From Gemmatimonadales bacterium (GTDB lineage Bacteria > Gemmatimonadota > Gemmatimonadetes > Gemmatimonadales > GWC2-71-9), in NCBI GenBank assembly GCA_052389555.1, contig JBQTHV010000015.1, forward strand, positions 1,492 through 65,491: a stretch of DNA of 64,000 nucleotides, read 5' to 3'. This document shows positions 42,021 through 48,489 of this stretch, one piece after another (positions within the stretch are counted from its first letter, which is position 1; each line of letters opens with the position of its first letter). The position numbers and the translations under genes were made by a program. The notes under the pieces are model-generated. The model saw nothing but the letters and a program-made list of their open reading frames with translations, was not told the origin of the DNA and did no database searches.

Positions 42021-42967
42021 ATCTCGGCAAGGACCTCGTTGGTCTCGAGTACTTGAGTGCCGACCAGATCCGCCTCATCCTGGATACCGCCGAGCCGTTC
42101 AAAGAGGTGAGCGAGCGGCCCATCAAAAAGGTCCCGGCGCTCCGCGGCAAGACCATCGTGAATCTGTTCTACGAGCCCTCGACCCGCACCCGGATCTCCT
42201 TCGAGTTCGCTGAGAAACGCCTGTCGGCGGACACGGTGAACGTGGCGACCGACGTTTCCTCCGTCTCCAAGGGCGAGAACCTGGTCGATACCGCGCGGAA
42301 TCTCGAGGCGATGCGGATCGACATGGTGGTCATCCGCCATCCCTCGAGCGGCGCCGCGCAGTTCCTGGCGTCCCGGATTCGCTCCAACGTGATCAACGCG
42401 GGCGACGGCAAGCATGAGCATCCCACCCAAGGGCTGTTGGATCTCCTCACTCTGCGCGACCGATTCGGTCGGATCGAAGGGCTCAAGGTCGCGATTTGCG
42501 GGGACGTGATGCACAGCCGGGTGGCCCGGAGCAACATCTGGGGCCTCCTCAAGCTCGGTGCCGAGGTGGCGGTGTGCGGCCCGGCGACCCTGATCCCGCG
42601 CGAGCTGGCCCAGCTCGGGGTGCAGATCCTTCCGCGCATCGAGGACGCGATCGGCTGGGCCGATGCGCTCAACGTGCTGCGGCTCCAGCTCGAGCGCATG
42701 GAAGCGGGTTATGTCCCGTCGCTGCGCGAATACAACCGCGTCTTCGGTGTCACGCGGGATCGGCTGGCCCGCGCCCCGAGGGACCTCGTCATCCTGCATC
42801 CAGGCCCGATGAATCGCGGGGTCGAGATCGATAGTGACGTGGCGGACGGCCCCCACAGCGTCATCCTTCCCCAGGTCACCAATGGGGTCGCGGTGCGGAT
42901 GGCGGTGCTCTACCTCCTCGCCGGCGGCGGCCCCGACTGGCGGGCGCCCGCCGGAGACGAGCGGTGA
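42017..42967 (+). CDS. pyrB: aspartate carbamoyltransferase catalytic subunit
   Basis: [11 protein letters not shown] and [10 protein letters not shown] signatures. Confidence 0.95.
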
Positions 42968-44313
42968 ATCCCCTGCTGATCCGCGGGGGACGGGTCATCG
43001 ACCCTTCGCGCGACTTCGATGCACCCGCCGACCTGCTCATCAAGGGCGGCCGGATCGAAGCAGTCGGCCGCAACCTCCCGCTCGAGCCGGGAACGGAAAC
43101 GATCGACGCCTCGGGGAAAGTGGTCGCGCCGGGCCTGATCGATCTCCACGTCCATCTGCGCGAACCGGGGTTCGAGCACGCCGAAACGATCGCGAGCGGC
43201 GCCGCGGCCGCCGTGGCGGGCGGGTTCACCACCGTGTGCGCGATGCCTAACACGGACCCGGTGACCGACAGTCCGGCCTCGGTCGGCTTCGTGCTGCGCC
43301 AGGCGATTCGCGCCGGGCTCGCGCGCGTGTATCCCATCGGGGCGGTCTCCCTCGCTCAGAAAGGCGAGCAGCTGACCGAGTTCGGCGAGCTGGTCCAGGC
43401 GGGCGCCGTCGCGGTCAGTGACGACGGCAATCCGGTGCGCACCAGCCATCTCATGCGCACGGCACTCGAATACGCGAAGACCTTCGGTATCCCCGTGGCC
43501 GACCACTGCGAGGATCTCTCCCTCTCGCAAGGTGGATCCATGCACGAGGGGATCGTCTCGGTGCGGCTGGGCCTCAAGGGCATCCCCGCGGCGGCGGAGG
43601 AGATCATCGTGGCGCGAGACATTCTCCTGGCCGGGCTGACCGGAGGTCACGTTCACCTCTGCCACATTTCTACTCGAGGATCGGTCGGACTCATCCGCCG
43701 GGCCAAGGAGCAAGGCATCCCGGTCACTGCCGAGGCGACACCCCATCACTTCACCCTCACGCACGAGCGGTGTGATGGGTATGACACCAACGCCAAAATG
43801 AATCCGCCGCTTCGTGAGGCCGCCGACCGCGACGCGATTCGTGAAGGCCTCCGCGATGGAACCATCGACTGCATCGCGACCGACCACGCGCCGCACCACT
43901 ACGACGCCAAAGAGCGGGAGTTCGACGAGGCCCCGAACGGCATCATTGGGCTCGAGACTGCCCTTGGCCTGGGAATTCGAGAGCTGGTGGAGCCCGGCCA
44001 CCTGTCCTTGCCCGAGCTGATTGGCCGCATGAGCACGATTCCGGCCCGGGTCTTTCAGCTCGGCGGGGGCACCCTGGCCATCGGTGCGCCCGCGGACGTG
44101 GTGGTTTTTGATCCAAGCCGGCGGTGGGTGTTCCGCAAGGAAGCGCTCCGATCCCTGAGCGCTAACTCCCCCTTTCTGGGGGAGACCATGGTGGGACAGG
44201 TGGACCTGACGCTGGTGGGCGGGAGGATTGTGTTCGACATCCGGGCCGTCAGGTTAGTGGCACCAATATACTTGACACACCACGGCCCTGATGGTATCTT
44301 GGGGTATGCTTAA
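42964..44313 (+). CDS. pyrC: dihydroorotase (C-terminal tail rewritten by IS insertion)
   Basis: Metal-binding [10 protein letters not shown] and the DHAPH motif. The last 17 codons read into the IS left end (see findings). Confidence 0.9.
44251..44258. repeat. target-site duplication, left copy (AGGTTAGT)
   Basis: An identical 8-mer directly flanks the outer ends of both terminal IRs. Confidence 0.75.
44259..44285. repeat. IS terminal inverted repeat, left (IR-L)
   Basis: ggcaccaatatacttgacacaccacgg. Confidence 0.8.
44272..44300 (+). promoter_or_regulatory. putative sigma70-type promoter of the transposase gene
   Basis: TTGACA (44272-77), 17 nt, TATCTT (44295-300). The ATG lies only 5 nt further on, so the mRNA would be leaderless or near-leaderless. 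Confidence 0.4.
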
Positions 44314-45280
44314 GTTTCCTCATACTCCCGTCACCCTGGCCGACGCCATTACTTACTTCGCGGACCAGGACAACGCGCTCCGGTTTCTGGCCGAATTGCG
44401 CTGGCCAGACGGCGTGAAATGCCCCCATTGCGGGGCCGATGATCCCGGCTTCCTGGCCTCCCGACGCATCTGGAAGTGCCGGGCGAAGGAATGCCGGAAA
44501 CAGTTCTCCATCAAAGTGGGGACGATCTTCGAGGATTCCCCGCTCGGGCTCGACAAGTGGCTCCCGGCCCTCTGGCTGCTCGCCAACAGCAAGAACGGCA
44601 TTTCGAGTTACGAGCTGGCCCGCGCCCTCGACGTGACCCAAAAGACTGCGTGGTTCATGCTCGGGCGCATCCGGGCGGCGATGGCGACCCGGACCTTTGC
44701 GCGATTCGAGGGCGAGATTGAGATGGACGAGGCATTCTTCGGCGGGCTTTACAAGAACATGCACCAGTCGAAGCGGAAGCGGCTCGGCTCCGGGCAGGGT
44801 CAGCGGAACAAGATCGGTGTCTTGGGCGTTCTCCAGCGGCCCAAGACTCGGAGCCATGTGAGCCAATTCCAGGGCTCGGTGATCGGCCCCGACCGGGAGA
44901 TGAAGCATCTCGGGCTCCGGGTGCGCTCGCTGGTGCAGGAAGGGAGCCGCCTCTATACCGACGAGGACAAACACTACCAACTGCTCCAGCAGCGCTACAT
45001 CCGAGAGATCATCAATCACGCTCGGGAGTACGTCCGCGGGAAGGTCCACACCAATGGCGTTGAGAACTTCTGGAGCCTGTTGAAGCGCACCATTAAAGGC
45101 ACCTACGTGAGCGTGGACCCGTTCCATTTCTTCCGCTACCTCGATGAGCAGGTGTTCCGGTTCAATAACCGGCGAGCCAGCGACGGAGACCGCTTCGTGG
45201 CGATGGTAGATTCCCTGCTCGGCACTCGGCTGACCTGGAAGGGACTCACCGGCAAGGACATGAGTCCGGCTACGACGTGA
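44306..45280 (+). CDS. IS1595-family transposase (ISXO2-like)
   Basis: N-terminal transposase zinc ribbon (LRWPDGVKCPHCG...WKCRAKECRKQFS), then ISXO2-like DDE region (EMDEAFFGG.., LYTDEDKHY, HTNGVENFWSLLKR). Confidence 0.9.
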   Translation: MLKFPHTPVTLADAITYFADQDNALRFLAELRWPDGVKCPHCGADDPGFLASRRIWKCRAKECRKQFSIKVGTIFEDSPLGLDKWLPALWLLANSKNGISSYELARALDVTQKTAWFMLGRIRAAMATRTFARFEGEIEMDEAFFGGLYKNMHQSKRKRLGSGQGQRNKIGVLGVLQRPKTRSHVSQFQGSVIGPDREMKHLGLRVRSLVQEGSRLYTDEDKHYQLLQQRYIREIINHAREYVRGKVHTNGVENFWSLLKRTIKGTYVSVDPFHFFRYLDEQVFRFNNRRASDGDRFVAMVDSLLGTRLTWKGLTGKDMSPATT

Positions 45281-45331
45281 CGCGGCCCGCAAGCCTCAAC
45301 TGAGACGGGGGCCACGACGAAAGAGGAAGCC

Positions 45332-45478
45332 ATGAAACCGACTCACAAGGCTCCGGCGGAAACGCCGGGGCCGTCGGCCTTTGAGCGGATGCGAGAACTG
45401 ACGCGACGGATCATCAATGTCCCGAAGTCTGAGATTCCTCCCAAACCAAAAGCCAAACAAAAGAGGCGACGAGCCTAG
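45332..45478 (+). CDS. possible 48-aa basic protein inside the IS
   Basis: SD gaaagaggaag 3 nt before the ATG. MKPTHKAPAETPGPSAFERMRELTRRIINVPKSEIPPKPKAKQKRRRA. The 3' end overlaps the RelA/SpoT stop by 4 nt, convergently. Too short for the ORF track. Confidence 0.35.
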   Translation: MKPTHKAPAETPGPSAFERMRELTRRIINVPKSEIPPKPKAKQKRRRA

Positions 45479-46605
45479 GCAAGAGCCTCCCGCAATTCGG
45501 CCATAAAGGCGGTCGTATCAGCGTAGAAACTCGGGTAAGCCTGCCTTAGAGCGCGTATTGAGGCCACCGATACCAATACGGCGTGTCTTTGCGGATCGCG
45601 GATGATCTGCTTTTCAATCTCGGCATAATCAGTCTCCGCCTTCTGTTGCGCGTCCAATGTGTACTGATGCCAGAACAATTCGCCCTTCGCAATATCAAGC
45701 GTTAGCAGGAAGGTGCGGGCCCCTGAAATCTTCTCGGGCCGCGATTCAGTAACGATCATGCTCCAGGCAGAGAATCGCTTCTCAACCTGCAAGGCCCCCG
45801 CAATCTGACGTAGCTCTTTCTTAATAGCCGTCACCCGCAGGGGAAGGCCTGGCGGAACTGGTCGCCGCTCTTTGAGGGCGAACACTCCGCCCATCAATAA
45901 GAAAAAACGCTTCCACGGCTCTTCCCCCACGCTCGATTTCAACGCCTGAGTAGTGAATAGATCCACCGTCTCAACTGCCGTTGCCCATTCGTGCTGGAGG
46001 CGAGATCGAAGCTGCACTTCAACTCTCAAGCCGTGGAACTTGTCGTATTTCGCGTATTGGGTATGATATTTGGAGACTAGGTGGATTCCTCGGTATCCGT
46101 CAGCTTTGGGATTCTTGATGTAATCGTATCTTTCAATCAACTCCGATTGGTGCTTCTGGCGACGTTCGGAAGCCCGACGATAGGCTTCATCTAGACGTTC
46201 GACCATTTGATTGGTTCGGAGAACGGCTCGGCAACCACCAATATCCTGCATCTGGGCAAGTTTCATCCTGCGAAAACGTCGCAGTTTTGTTAGTATGGCG
46301 ATCATCCTCTTGAGCCGTTGGGAAATGAGAGCTTCCCTGTCAACCTTCCTCGCACGGTCCATCAATGTGATGCGAGCTGAAAGCAGCGGCCAACTATGGG
46401 ATGAGCGCCAATTGCTGATGATCTTGAATGCCTCATCTGTCTTGCCTAGGAACTGGTGGAACTCATCTTTGCTATCAAAACCTGGGGGACGACTCTCCAG
46501 CTCGTGAGCCAAGTAATCGCCCGCTGCGTCAACCTTGGTACGGGAGAATTGCGGAGTGACCCAAGCCACCTCAGACAGCCTCGGACGAGGGGGAGCGATC
46601 AACAT
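45475..46605 (-). CDS. RelA/SpoT-domain nucleotide pyrophosphokinase (small alarmone synthetase / toxSAS-like) with about 160-aa C-terminal domain of unknown function
   Basis: Synthetase motifs RLKRMIAILTKL, MQDIGGCRAV, ADGYRGIHLV and EVQLRSRLQHEWA. No hydrolase (HD) domain. About half G+C by eye. Confidence 0.85.
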   Translation of the reverse strand: MLIAPPRPRLSEVAWVTPQFSRTKVDAAGDYLAHELESRPPGFDSKDEFHQFLGKTDEAFKIISNWRSSHSWPLLSARITLMDRARKVDREALISQRLKRMIAILTKLRRFRRMKLAQMQDIGGCRAVLRTNQMVERLDEAYRRASERRQKHQSELIERYDYIKNPKADGYRGIHLVSKYHTQYAKYDKFHGLRVEVQLRSRLQHEWATAVETVDLFTTQALKSSVGEEPWKRFFLLMGGVFALKERRPVPPGLPLRVTAIKKELRQIAGALQVEKRFSAWSMIVTESRPEKISGARTFLLTLDIAKGELFWHQYTLDAQQKAETDYAEIEKQIIRDPQRHAVLVSVASIRALRQAYPSFYADTTAFMAELREALA

Positions 46606-46615
46606 AACCCCTCAG

Positions 46616-46642
46616 CCCTGGTGTGTCTAGTAAGTTGGTGCC
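46616..46642. repeat. IS terminal inverted repeat, right (IR-R)
   Basis: ccctggtgtgtctagtaagttggtgcc. Its reverse complement, ggcaccaacttactagacacaccaggg, matches IR-L. Confidence 0.8.
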
Positions 46643-46650
46643 AGGTTAGT
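46643..46650. repeat. target-site duplication, right copy (AGGTTAGT)
   Basis: Identical to 44251-44258. Confidence 0.75.
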
Positions 46651-46745
46651 TGACGGCTTGGATCTGAACAGGTTTCGCGCAGGCCGATAGGCATTAGATT
46701 GAATTGACTTAGCCCGCCCAGCCGGCTGCTCCCAGAGGGAAGGCA

Positions 46746-47681
46746 ATGAAGGACTCGAAGTCACACGACTTGTCCGACATCGAGAGTTTGCTGGCCGGCC
46801 GCCAGCAGTTGACCGAGTGGCTCGAGCGCCTGGAGGAGGCTGGGTCGCGAGCGCCCGAATCGGTGCGTACCAAGGTACGGGCCGACTACCAGGGACGTCT
46901 GGCCCAGGTGGTGAACCAGCTCGGCGCTCATCGGGACGTGATCAACACGACCCTCGAGGGGCTGCGAGCGCAATCTCAAGAAACCAACCAGCTTCGGCGG
47001 GAGCAGCTCGAAGTCCGGGCTGAAGCAGAGCTTCGCCACGCAGTCGGCGAATACAGCGACGATCAGTGGCAACTGATTGATCTGGAGACGACCGGGCGAA
47101 TCAATGGCCTGGAGCACGAGCTGGAGAAGCTCGCCGAGGAAATCCGGCGGCTCGCTGAAGTTTATGCGCTGATCGCGCCGCCGCAGCCGGAGCAGCGCCC
47201 CGCTGCCTCCGTCGAGCGCCGGACGCCGAGCGGCGACTTACCGAGCGCGGAGCGCCGAGCGCCGAGTGTCGAGCCGCGAGTCTCCGAACCCGAGTCGCCG
47301 CCGGTCCCCACCGGTCCCCGACTGGTGAGCGACGATGGGCTGACTCCGGCTCCGCGTCCCGAGGCGCCACGATTTGTGCCTCGTGGGGCTGTCCCGGCAG
47401 CTCGGGAGCCCGCTCAGCCACGCGCCCCGCGAGTTACCCCGATGCCGGCGCCTGCCAGTCAGGGCGCCGACGACGAGCTCGCGTTTCTGCGCTCGGTGAA
47501 TGTCGAAATCGAAGCGTCCCCTCACCCGGCCGCCACGAATCAGGAGGGGAGCGGGCAGGAAACGGAAGTGCGGAAGGGCCCCACGGCCGCCAAGACCCTG
47601 AAGTGCGGCGAGTGCGGTTCGCTCAACCGGCCGACCGAATGGTACTGCGAGCGGTGTGGGGCGGAGCTGGCCGCGGTCTGA
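46746..47681 (+). CDS. coiled-coil / low-complexity protein with C-terminal zinc ribbon
   Basis: N-terminal heptad-rich helices, a Pro/Arg/Glu-rich middle and C-terminal KCGECGSLNRPTEWYCERCG. Confidence 0.7.
   Translation: MKDSKSHDLSDIESLLAGRQQLTEWLERLEEAGSRAPESVRTKVRADYQGRLAQVVNQLGAHRDVINTTLEGLRAQSQETNQLRREQLEVRAEAELRHAVGEYSDDQWQLIDLETTGRINGLEHELEKLAEEIRRLAEVYALIAPPQPEQRPAASVERRTPSGDLPSAERRAPSVEPRVSEPESPPVPTGPRLVSDDGLTPAPRPEAPRFVPRGAVPAAREPAQPRAPRVTPMPAPASQGADDELAFLRSVNVEIEASPHPAATNQEGSGQETEVRKGPTAAKTLKCGECGSLNRPTEWYCERCGAELAAV
47212..47296. repeat. heptamer-periodic CCGAGNN tract inside the coding region
   Basis: tcgagcg ccggacg ccgagcg ... ccgagcg ccgagtg tcgagcc gcgagtc. Encodes SVERRTPSGDLPSAERRAPSVEPRVSEPES. 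Confidence 0.6.
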
Positions 47682-47689
47682 CTTGAAGG

Positions 47690-47735
47690 GGAGGTAGTAA
47701 GCAGGAGGTAGTAAGCAGGAGGTAGTGAGCAGGGA
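47690..47735. repeat. 14-mer tandem repeat (GGAGGTAGTAAGCA x3), left arm of a split hairpin
   Basis: 47704-47735 pairs 30/32 with 48203-48234. Confidence 0.85.
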
Positions 47736-47823
47736 CCTCGACTGCGATGATCTGGACCAGCTAGAGGGTTCTTTGCGTTAGAACGGTTACTCATCCGCCC
47801 TGGCCGCGCAGTAGCTTGGCTGC

Positions 47824-48191
47824 ATGGCCACCCTGATTCGAACCTACCAAGATTTAATCGTCTGGCAAAAATCGATGGATCTTGCCCTGATAGTGCTCAG
47901 GTTGGCTGCACGCTTGAAGGGTGCGCGCTCTTATGTGCTTGCTGATCAGCTCGAGCGCTCGGCCATCTCCATCCCTTCAAATCTGGCGGAAGGTCATGGA
48001 CGAAGATCTCGTGCCGAGTTTCGGCGATATGTCGCCGTTGCGAATGCTTCCCTGCGGGAGTTGGAAACCCAGCTGAGCTCCTGAGGCGGTACTGCCCGCG
48101 GGTGGCCCAAAGAGTCAGTCGGATTCTCGTGGGCACTGATGAGATAGGACGGATGCTCAATACCCTGCATCACCGCCTGGGGACTTCATAA
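47824..48191 (+). pseudogene. four-helix-bundle protein gene (23S rRNA intervening-sequence protein family), frameshifted
   Basis: Frame 1 gives YQDLIVWQKSMDL...IPSNLAEGHGR...ASLRELETQL, then a stop. The family C-terminus (..ILVGTDEIGRMLNTLHHRL) continues in frame 3 to TAA at 48189-48191. Confidence 0.8.
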
Positions 48192-48202
48192 CGCCCTCGA
48201 AG

Positions 48203-48234
48203 TCCCTTCTCACTACCTCCTGCTTACTAACTCC
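48203..48234. repeat. right arm of the split GGAGGTAGTAAGCA hairpin
   Basis: tcccttctcactacctcctgcttactaactcc is the reverse complement of the left arm with 2 mismatches. Confidence 0.85.
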
Positions 48235-48240
48235 TAGTCG

Positions 48241-48489
48241 CTAGCCCCCACGCTTCCGCGAGATCCGACTCTTGAGACGCGCCGCCGTGTTAGGGTGGAT
48301 CAACCGTTTCCGAGCGGCGCGGTCGAGCAGGCTTCCGAGTCCGCGCAGGGCGGCCCCCTGCTCCCGGGCGCCGACCGAGGCGCGAGCCTTCTTCAGGGCG
48401 GTGCGCAGCGCGCTCCGCTGACTCTTGTTTCGCGCCGTACGCGCCCGGGTCTGGCGCATCGCCTTTTTCGCAGATTTCGTCCTCGGCAC
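48241..48489 (-). CDS. rpsT: 30S ribosomal protein S20
   Basis: MPRTKSAKKAMRQTRARTARNKSQRSALRT.. GTG start with SD gaaagg. Confidence 0.95.
   Translation of the reverse strand: MPRTKSAKKAMRQTRARTARNKSQRSALRTALKKARASVGAREQGAALRGLGSLLDRAARKRLIHPNTAARLKSRISRKRGG

Follow-up and report, generated by a model that had tools for sequence, protein, structure and literature searches.

The DNA analysed here is a 64,000-nt stretch (the window) of contig JBQTHV010000015.1 from a Gemmatimonadales bacterium (GenBank assembly GCA_052389555.1), and the subject of this study is an insertion sequence (IS) located at the 3' end of the dihydroorotase gene pyrC, together with the gene that this IS carries. From left to right, the locus comprises pyrC, a first copy of a short direct repeat, a left inverted repeat (IR-L), a transposase gene, a small open reading frame (ORF) of 48 codons, a cargo gene on the opposite strand, a right inverted repeat (IR-R), the second copy of the direct repeat, and the displaced original end of pyrC (Table 1). 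We consider it highly probable that positions 44259-46642 represent an intact transporter IS (tIS) of the IS1595 family, which was inserted as a unit into the tail of pyrC, is modular in structure, and carries a fused toxin-antitoxin cargo of the CapRel type.

Table 1 Features of the insertion sequence and its insertion site, in window coordinates
Feature	Position	Strand	Basis or remark
pyrC (dihydroorotase), C-terminal tail IS-encoded	42964..44313	+	ends of profile matches; C-termini of relatives
Left target duplication, 8 bp, AGGTTAGT	44251..44258		alternative register CAGGTTAG, 44250-44257
Transporter IS, IS1595 family, complete, 2384 bp	44259..46642	+	inverted repeats, duplication, gene content; collinearity with related locus L002
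IR-L, GGCACCAATATACTTGACACACCACGG	44259..44285	+	23/27 match to IR-R
Predicted inward promoter P_L: -35 TTGACA 44272-44277, 17-nt spacer, -10 TATCTT 44295-44300	44272..44300	+	promoter scan
Transposase, 324 aa, Zn ribbon and ISXO2-like DDE domain	44306..45280	+	Pfam, NCBIfam; start MLKFPH as in homologues
Conserved small ORF, 48 aa, motif AFE+MRELTRRII.VPKSE, basic tail	45332..45478	+	conserved in L006 and L002
CapRel-like fused toxin-antitoxin toxSAS (PADLOC PDC-S33), 364 aa from GTG 46569	45475..46569	-	profile, PDB-sequence and structure matches
Predicted inward promoter P_R: -35 TAGACA 46629-46624, 17-nt spacer, -10 TATGTT 46606-46601	46601..46629	-	promoter scan
IR-R, reverse complement GGCACCAACTTACTAGACACACCAGGG	46616..46642	-	23/27 match to IR-L
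Right target duplication, 8 bp, AGGTTAGT	46643..46650		alternative register 46642-46649
Displaced original pyrC 3' end (…DGLDLNRFRAGR, stop TAG 46688-46690)	46651..46690	+	reading frame traced across the junction

An earlier reading of this DNA from sequence alone (the sequence-only reading) had proposed precise ends for the element, and these were reproduced: the two inverted repeats agree as quoted, and a repeat finder extended the pair to 44 nt at 75% identity. Allowing up to three mismatches, a 23-nt core of the repeat occurs at just these two sites in the 64-kb window, and there were no matches in 100 shuffles. The proposed duplication is exact and lies directly outside both repeats. The identity at the junctions spans 9 nt (CAGGTTAGT) and the duplication is readable in two registers; AGGTTAGT gives symmetric GG...CC ends, like those of all relatives, while CAGGTTAG is the better fit to the target consensus of the clade, and a choice between them is not possible from the sequence alone. 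The drop in G+C content that had been judged by eye was found as well, from 0.65-0.70 in the flanks to 0.50-0.54 in the cargo, with the transposase intermediate at about 0.62. An Rfam search of 44000-48300 gave no match, and a scan found terminator-like sites in the region at chance level. Profile matches agree with the gene content as first described, a zinc-ribbon and DDE transposase, a 48-codon ORF and a RelA/SpoT-domain gene. The CapRel-like gene (45475-46569) lies inside both inverted repeats and the duplication, which is what sets a tIS apart, and the assignment to the transporter ISs of the IS1595 family is borne out by the transposase profiles, the inverted repeats, the exact 8-bp duplication and the existence of related elements.

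The transposase matches the Pfam families Zn_ribbon_IS1595 (PF12760, 1.1e-12) and DDE_Tnp_IS1595 (PF12762, 2.5e-33), both above the gathering score, as well as the NCBIfam model for IS1595 (NF033547, 2.8e-50, 171 bits vs. a cut-off of 75). Zinc-ribbon residues C39, C42, C58, and C63 along with D141, D219, E253, and K260 are invariant in 20 relatives, and so are E281 and R285. The closest annotated plasmid relatives are at most 39% identical and are labelled only 'IS1595 family transposase'. On comparative grounds, the 48-codon ORF qualifies as a conserved backbone gene. Counterparts are found in two related loci (L006, 3122-3262; L002, 1186-1326; related loci are given here by L numbers), and a tblastn search located the motif of this ~46-aa ORF (FE+F..L.RRL..VPK.E and a basic tail) at 43 of 83 transposase loci, alongside unrelated cargo and in either orientation, although mostly directly after the transposase. 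The small ORF had no match in Pfam, NCBIfam or PADLOC. Its stop codon overlaps that of the cargo convergently (CTAG, 45475-45478), an arrangement that is also present in L002.

Further elements that share these inverted repeats were found, as had been expected, in L006-L008, with different cargo, and in L002. The closest transposase (84% identical) resides in a 2679-bp element with other passenger genes (L006-L008), whose termini (GGCACCAACTTACT) are those of the window and which has its own 8-bp duplication, ACAGTTTG. L002, a contig that begins exactly at the inverted repeat, encodes a transposase and a cargo with 68% and 64% protein identity, respectively, and the small ORF, likewise arranged convergently; collinearity with the element of the window extends over positions 66-2310 at 68% nucleotide identity. 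The IR-R end is kept upstream of the cargo homologues in L002 and in L001, a contig of the same strain, and is degenerate in L003. In L003 (3380-4950), a 67%-identical cargo with its leader and the degenerate IR-R occurs without transposase and small ORF, and looks like cargo left behind after decay of an element. Synteny between L003 and the window was considered and rejected, as the amidohydrolase of L003 differs from pyrC, with 39% identity over no more than 82 residues, and the other neighbouring gene is unrelated; L003 represents an independent site.

A scan of JGI metagenomes added 80 loci with transposases 49-61% identical to that of the window. Elements were delimited by a script that required an exact 8-bp direct repeat beside inverted termini, which resulted in 37 non-redundant elements of 1.9-5.6 kb including that of the window (38 before the identical L015 and L016 were merged). 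Both ends share the terminal consensus GGcAAtAAtATACTTGACtCAcCa, and exact 8-bp duplications flank the 36 related elements and additionally L191. The target preference is palindromic (C-T/A-A-A-T-T-A/T-G), the first base being C in 28/37 and the eighth G in 29/37, and the duplications of the 37 elements are 69% A+T, even in GC-rich hosts. All delimited elements contain at least ~0.9 kb beyond the transposase, mostly downstream and at times upstream of it. Genes between IR-L and the transposase encode DUF6602 proteins in L024 (3992-4918) and L039 (3979-4920) and a proteasome-like protein in L071 (4169-4990), and are also present in L006 (1582-1899), L068 (4271-4921) and L078; a second cargo position therefore exists in some elements. 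As a separate observation, L011 (2153-4763), L012 (140-2569, in opposite orientation) and L015 (4843-6975, equal to L016) hold different cargo at the same target, caagcgCTTGTTAGgcg, which suggests a recurrent hot spot or a repeated target.

The insertion site could be reconstructed from pyrC, whose closest species representatives are 80-81% identical and whose relatives place the window in the Gemmatimonadales. Dihydroorotase profiles stop at residues 423-428 of the protein and the IS begins after codon 429; the insertion therefore lies in the non-conserved C-terminal tail. Codons 430-432 (RLV) derive from the left duplication and the next 17 codons, ending at 44313, from IR-L, while the proteins of relatives end 0-17 residues past the conserved ..VVF. 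Thus, of the proposal that the 3' end of pyrC had been hit, the position of the IS in the tail of the gene stands, but the domain is not truncated: only the last 12, non-conserved codons were replaced by 17 IS-encoded ones. Removal of the IS and one copy of the duplication yields …RLVDGLDLNRFRAGR; the reading frame then closes at 46688-46690, and 55 nt separate this stop from ATG 46746 of the next gene. The restored junction would read …GCCGTCAGGTTAGTTGACGG…. The site is empty in relatives, as had been anticipated: the junction of pyrC with its downstream region is without IS in 80 of 80 Gemmatimonadota, and tblastn detected no match to transposase, small ORF or cargo near pyrC in any of these loci. 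In 76 of these 80 loci the gene after pyrC encodes a homologue of the 311-aa zinc-ribbon protein found downstream in the window, and the gap between the two genes is ~95 nt in the two closest relatives.

Comparison with L006 reveals the modular structure of the element. Homology is limited to the two inverted repeats and to element positions 66-1182 (the transposase and most of the small ORF, 81% nucleotide identity), positions 1183-2360 are replaced in L006, and homology resumes at 2361, so that the cargo slot extends from the small ORF to the inner end of IR-R. The G+C content at third codon positions in six elements (window, L002, L006, L035, L076, L191) is 0.68-0.84 in the transposase, 0.53-0.62 in the cargo and 0.60-0.64 in the small ORF; it is higher in the transposase than in the cargo irrespective of host G+C, which agrees with modular assembly. 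CapRel-like cargo was found in the window, L002, L035, L076, L191 and L177, in addition to the remnant in L003. Among these, L035 and L076, with transposases 52-53% identical to that of the window, and L191 are complete elements, each with its own exact 8-bp duplication; L191 measures 2856 bp, is flanked by CAGTGATG and lies in an IMG/VR contig, and L177 (inverted repeat, cargo, and small ORF) is interrupted by the contig end. IS-borne homologues of the cargo account for only 2-3 of 80 viral or prophage loci. A single lineage of CapRel carriers was rejected as an explanation, given that the nearest transposase neighbours with known cargo carry other genes (L006 for the window and L002, L053 for L076, L038 and L027 for L035). 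Cargo identity among carriers is 36-45%, the pair of window and L002 excepted, and the slot has therefore been filled repeatedly by the CapRel-like family, or cassettes have been exchanged. The recurrence of CapRel-carrying elements with duplications of their own supports the idea put forward in the sequence-only reading that a toxin or defence gene is mobilised as one 2.4-kb unit, with a defence role suggested by analogy.

The label of RelA/SpoT passenger gene given to the cargo holds as far as the domain is concerned (Pfam RelA_SpoT, 3.6e-13) but is too general, as the cargo is specifically a CapRel-type fused toxSAS. PADLOC family PDC-S33 matches over the full length (2e-105, residues 14-375, profile positions 2-342 of 349), and a phmmer search of PDB sequences returned the CapRel entries 7ZTB and 9ERV as best matches (4.1e-36, cargo residues 55-367 of 376 vs. 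35-362), while housekeeping small alarmone synthetases matched over ~120 residues only at ~1e-6 (YjbM 1.7e-06). The alignment to 7ZTB extends to residue 362 of 373 and thereby covers the fused C-terminal sensor/antitoxin (pseudo-zinc-finger domain); the C-terminal ~150 residues of the cargo align with the sensor/anchor region, including AVL.S…AYP.[YF][YF]. The cargo motifs SQRLKR, GGCRA, and DGYRGIH align with CapRel R79, R116, and the G-loop tyrosine Y155 and do not vary among 50 homologues; the interface residues V338, L339, A351, and Y352 are conserved as well. At the YXXY motif, the cargo reads Y-P-S-F-Y, with the first tyrosine kept and Y355 changed to F followed by Y, and homologues read AYP.[YF][YF]. 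An AlphaFold model based on 50 homologues (pLDDT 93.4, pTM 0.90) had only CapRel chains as full-length PDB neighbours in Foldseek (E 1.7e-23, TM 0.65-0.68, 374 columns), while SAS1 and RelP match the catalytic core only (TM 0.3-0.4 on query); the high root-mean-square deviation to CapRel (~10 Å) would be expected if the domain arrangement differs between model and crystal. An in-frame ATG at 46605 would give a protein of 376 aa but was rejected as the start, since homologues begin at a conserved MAW..PQ that corresponds to GTG 46569; the database gene call (P0001) is likewise 364 aa long, and GTG 46569 is most likely the start codon judging by these alignments. The link between PDC-S33 and CapRel-like proteins is drawn in the present analysis; the family also matches L035 (5e-115) and a second cargo ORF that is not a methyltransferase, presumably that of L076.

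Several observations weigh against the reading of the locus given above. The -35 hexamer in IR-R is TAGACA instead of TTGACA, and the -35 sequences lie inside the inverted repeats and could be conserved solely for transposase binding. The restored tail of pyrC has 20 residues after ..IVF, compared with 0-17 in 80 relatives, and since it is longer than in any of them the exact ancestral 3' end is an approximation. We found no second identical copy and, in exact look-ups of the flanking proteins, no strain-level empty site, so that present-day mobility is no more than a possibility. The cargo is only ~28-30% identical to CapRelSJ46, the second tyrosine of its YXXY motif is F, although homologues vary between Y and F at both positions, and its substrate, not readable from the sequence, could be tRNA, or ATP/ADP as in toxSAS that make (pp)pApp. 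Four alternatives concern the ends, the mobility and the cargo.

Regarding the ends, both hexamer pairs noted in the sequence-only reading were recovered by a promoter scanner, with 3 such sites in the region compared with 0.9 expected. P_L ends 5 nt upstream of the transposase ATG 44306, from which we predict that the transposase mRNA is probably leaderless, and which speaks against an alternative upstream ATG (44291) that would make the protein 329 aa. P_R has a predicted start at ~46594, followed by a leader of ~25 nt to GTG 46569 with GAGG 9 nt before it; the suggested overlap with the cargo start applies to the annotated ATG 46605, which the -10 does overlap, but not to the probable start at GTG 46569. 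Among the 37 elements, at least 5/6 of TTGACA occupies positions 14-19 of the transposase end in 34. A -10-like hexamer, taken as one with A as its second base, T as its sixth and no fewer than 3/6 matches, begins at position 37 in 28 of the 37 (background 0-3, with a secondary peak of 8 at position 32). At the cargo end, the -35 is present in 25/37 and a -10-like hexamer starts at position 37 or 38 in 22/37 (background 0-4). The fixed positions of these predicted hexamers lend comparative support to the proposal that each end may drive one gene, and P_L and P_R are accordingly treated here as putative promoters. The hexamers could instead be transposase-binding sequence only, with transposase and cargo transcribed from elsewhere, e.g., by read-through from pyrC or from internal promoters: TTGAC falls within the most conserved part of both repeats, as a protein-binding site would, the IR-R of the window combines its imperfect -35 with a weak -10 (TATGTT), and the element lies directly 3' of pyrC with its transposase on the same strand. 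However, the -10-like hexamer is found in otherwise variable sequence outside the conserved repeat core and yet peaks at one position on each end, which is hard to explain by transposase binding alone, start codons follow the -10 at a short fixed distance in many elements, and read-through from pyrC cannot serve the cargo because the cargo is on the opposite strand. Binding alone is thus an unlikely explanation of the hexamers. The cargo-end -10 often reads yATGaT, for which reason an ATG recurs at position 38 with unrelated cargo. Independently of the promoters, a motif GTGACAGGCCGG was observed just past the predicted P_R start at the cargo-side ends of L032, L037, L038, L047, L064, and L067 (positions ~46-64) and, by eye, in L086 and L089; no gene starts there, no conserved ORF is opened, and the motif is absent from the element of the window.

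Regarding mobility, the element could be an immobile relic of one past insertion that is now a fixed gene pair, with the association of transposase and cargo due to shared ancestry and not to ongoing mobilisation. It occurs once in the 64-kb window, no further exact copy of the transposase is recorded, and the inverted repeats differ at 4/27 positions. Evidence from the same strain is provided by two Logan contigs of one sample (SRR34758880), L170 and L001: an exact look-up of the pyrB protein returned one same-strain contig that runs into the IS, and an exact look-up of the protein of the downstream gene gave no match. L170 ends 9 nt into IR-L, and its last base is C compared with T at window position 44267. 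A C at this position also occurs in IR-R and in the IR-L of L006, and the difference may stem from a polymorphism, a further copy or an error of assembly. L001 is 100% identical over window 44663-46643 and stops 1 nt past IR-R. Such breaks of a short-read assembly at both IS ends are expected of a repeated or polymorphic element, and are in this respect no more than suggestive. In addition, the two copies of the duplication agree exactly, the transposase has its full length and every family-invariant residue, no related species examined (80 Gemmatimonadota) has the insertion, and complete relatives flanked by duplications of their own occur in unrelated surroundings, a viral contig among them. 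These observations make a relic improbable.

Regarding the cargo, its protein could be a toxSAS with other chemistry, i.e., (pp)pApp synthesis with ATP depletion like that of FaRel, or else a small alarmone synthetase of the ordinary kind. The generic nature of the Pfam match and the low identity to CapRelSJ46 are compatible with this, as is a best NCBIfam match to the YjbM-type GTP diphosphokinase, which is however far under its cut-off (44.6 bits vs. 320). On the other hand, full-length matches are confined to CapRel both by sequence (4e-36, compared with 1.7e-06 for YjbM) and by fold (TM 0.65-0.68 vs. 0.3-0.4), they include the sensor/anchor region, and the gene resides on a mobile element of a clade that carries defence genes, so that we regard a different kind of enzyme as rather improbable and a phage-triggered translation inhibitor as the presumed function by analogy with CapRel. 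Toxin-antitoxin pairs on mobile DNA classically act in selfish maintenance, and given the toxin-antitoxin ancestry of the cargo it might serve the element as an addiction module against loss of the IS and not the host as a phage defence. This is very improbable, because toxin and antitoxin form one polypeptide and the differential decay required for addiction is unavailable, the characterised members are phage sensors (PMC9712102), and the slot that holds the cargo here is occupied in sister elements by restriction, NucC, TIR/SIR2 and further defence genes.

The content of this slot was surveyed by comparing 64 cargo ORFs of at least 120 aa from the clade with Pfam and PADLOC. Pfam matches comprise N6_N4_Mtase (6), DUF3800 (4), Mrr_cat (4), NA-iREase1 (3), DUF6602 (2), GmrSD_N (2), SocA_Panacea (2), and RelA_SpoT (2), as well as one each of TIR, BglII endonuclease, MTaX1, DUF4145, PIN, HNH, NYN, HEPN, and Schlafen/AlbA_2. 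PADLOC matches comprise type II methyltransferases (6), PDC-S33 (2), PD_DExK (2), NucC-like proteins (2), a type II restriction endonuclease, NsnA, SIR2/TIR modules, and the candidates PD-T4-2, PD-T4-10, PD-T7-4, and PDC-S45. No resistance family and none that is plainly metabolic is among the families listed for the 64 ORFs, and judging from these annotations the cargo of the clade appears to be mostly defence or toxin-antitoxin-like. Several cargo families are without annotation, e.g., a ~270-aa family in L006, L011, L012, and L061; a 267-aa plus-strand ORF was rejected as the cargo of L006, as an overlapping 276-aa minus-strand ORF is the one with homologues in the other three loci. There is about an even chance that the element of the window is one of a large and apparently undescribed clade of minimal 'defence shuttles', i.e., IS1595/ISNwi1-like elements of 2-5.6 kb with near-identical promoter-cassette ends, a ~46-aa protein, a palindromic target, and an exchangeable slot filled mostly with anti-phage or toxin-antitoxin genes. 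The contents of the slot would then include type II restriction-modification, Mrr, GmrSD, NucC-like, TIR/SIR2, PIN, HEPN, Panacea, and DUF3800 genes and, at least six times, CapRel.

Both the kind of element (tIS) and CapRel are already known. The element shares with other tISs of the IS1595 family a zinc-ribbon and ISXO2-like DDE transposase, terminal inverted repeats, an 8-bp duplication, passenger genes, and a size of 2-5 kb. Its nearest subgroup may be ISNwi1/ISNwi1+, which ISfinder describes as having ends of ggnnatTAT and a DDEK+ER4 signature. The termini of the clade are GGyAAyAAT/GGnnATTAT, and those of L070 and L076 are exactly GGnnATTAT; these termini, and E281…R285 after D141/D219/E253/K260 in the transposase, resemble that description, whereas the window ends, GGCACCAAT, deviate from the subgroup consensus. 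Tn7-like and other transposons are reported, by Benler and colleagues in 2021, to carry defence cargo. The elements described here likewise have a transposon backbone and a variable slot in which defence systems are enriched, but they are far smaller (2-5 kb), with a single DDE transposase and neither targeting proteins nor attachment site, and their target is a palindrome that is short and AT-rich (C-T/A-A-A-T-T-A/T-G). The IS1595 family is the one on which transporter ISs were defined (Siguier, Gagnevin & Chandler 2009, as cited in PMC3129680). In the literature searched, which lacked most subscription journals including the 2009 paper, we found no description of a CapRel or toxSAS passenger in this family, nor of a defence-type cargo repertoire, a ~46-aa ORF, or promoter-bearing inverted repeats at both ends, and no useful literature on PDC-S33 or ISNwi1; PDC-S33 is a computational candidate system whose library entry carries no description. 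In CapRelSJ46 (PDB 7ZTB, 9ERV; PMC9712102, PMC11578894), a phage capsid protein binds the C-terminal pseudo-zinc-finger domain, upon which the N-terminal toxSYNTH domain pyrophosphorylates tRNA (PMC9712102), and the roles of ATP-coordinating arginines, G-loop tyrosine and autoinhibition interface referred to here are taken from that work. The cargo is similar in length (364 vs. 372-373 aa), matches in full-length sequence and fold, and keeps the arginines, the G-loop tyrosine, and the C-terminal anchor motif, but differs at YPSF-Y vs. YPNY. CapRelSJ46 derives from a Salmonella/E. coli prophage, while the cargo is located on an IS in a Gemmatimonadales chromosome and is known here from sequence and model.

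About 1.2 kb from the IS and unrelated to it, a plus-strand ORF of 86 aa (47824-48084) belongs to the 23S rRNA-intervening-sequence protein family (PF05635, 1.5e-25, profile positions 1-76 of 106). It lies in a local G+C dip (0.55-0.59) and is probably truncated.

In the scenario that we propose, the 2384-bp unit would have transposed whole into pyrC, within its final non-conserved codons, with duplication of an 8-bp target. Its layout may be read as IR-L with an inward promoter, transposase, 48-aa ORF, a replaceable cargo slot, and an inward promoter inside IR-R. The N-terminal toxSAS domain of the cargo would be a pyrophosphokinase, whose counterpart in CapRelSJ46 modifies tRNA and halts translation, and the C-terminal sensor/antitoxin domain would hold the toxin shut until a phage protein binds. 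Because immunity and toxin form one polypeptide and a promoter is predicted inside the inverted repeat, the cargo gene could be self-sufficient at any landing site. The comparative data predict two transcription starts, a leaderless transposase mRNA, a bordered cargo slot, and a conserved small protein. If the wider clade is what it may be, its slot could serve as bait for new single-gene defence systems, such as the unannotated ~270-aa family, and the clade could be mined for defence genes; this clade-level pattern of small promoter-equipped transposons would be the most interesting outcome. The element would represent the smallest kind of transposon that moves a complete, self-regulated immune gene, with the promoter built into the inverted repeat. 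Defence systems made of a single protein, such as CapRel, could in this simple way spread beyond prophages and defence islands, in the present case in an uncultivated soil phylum.

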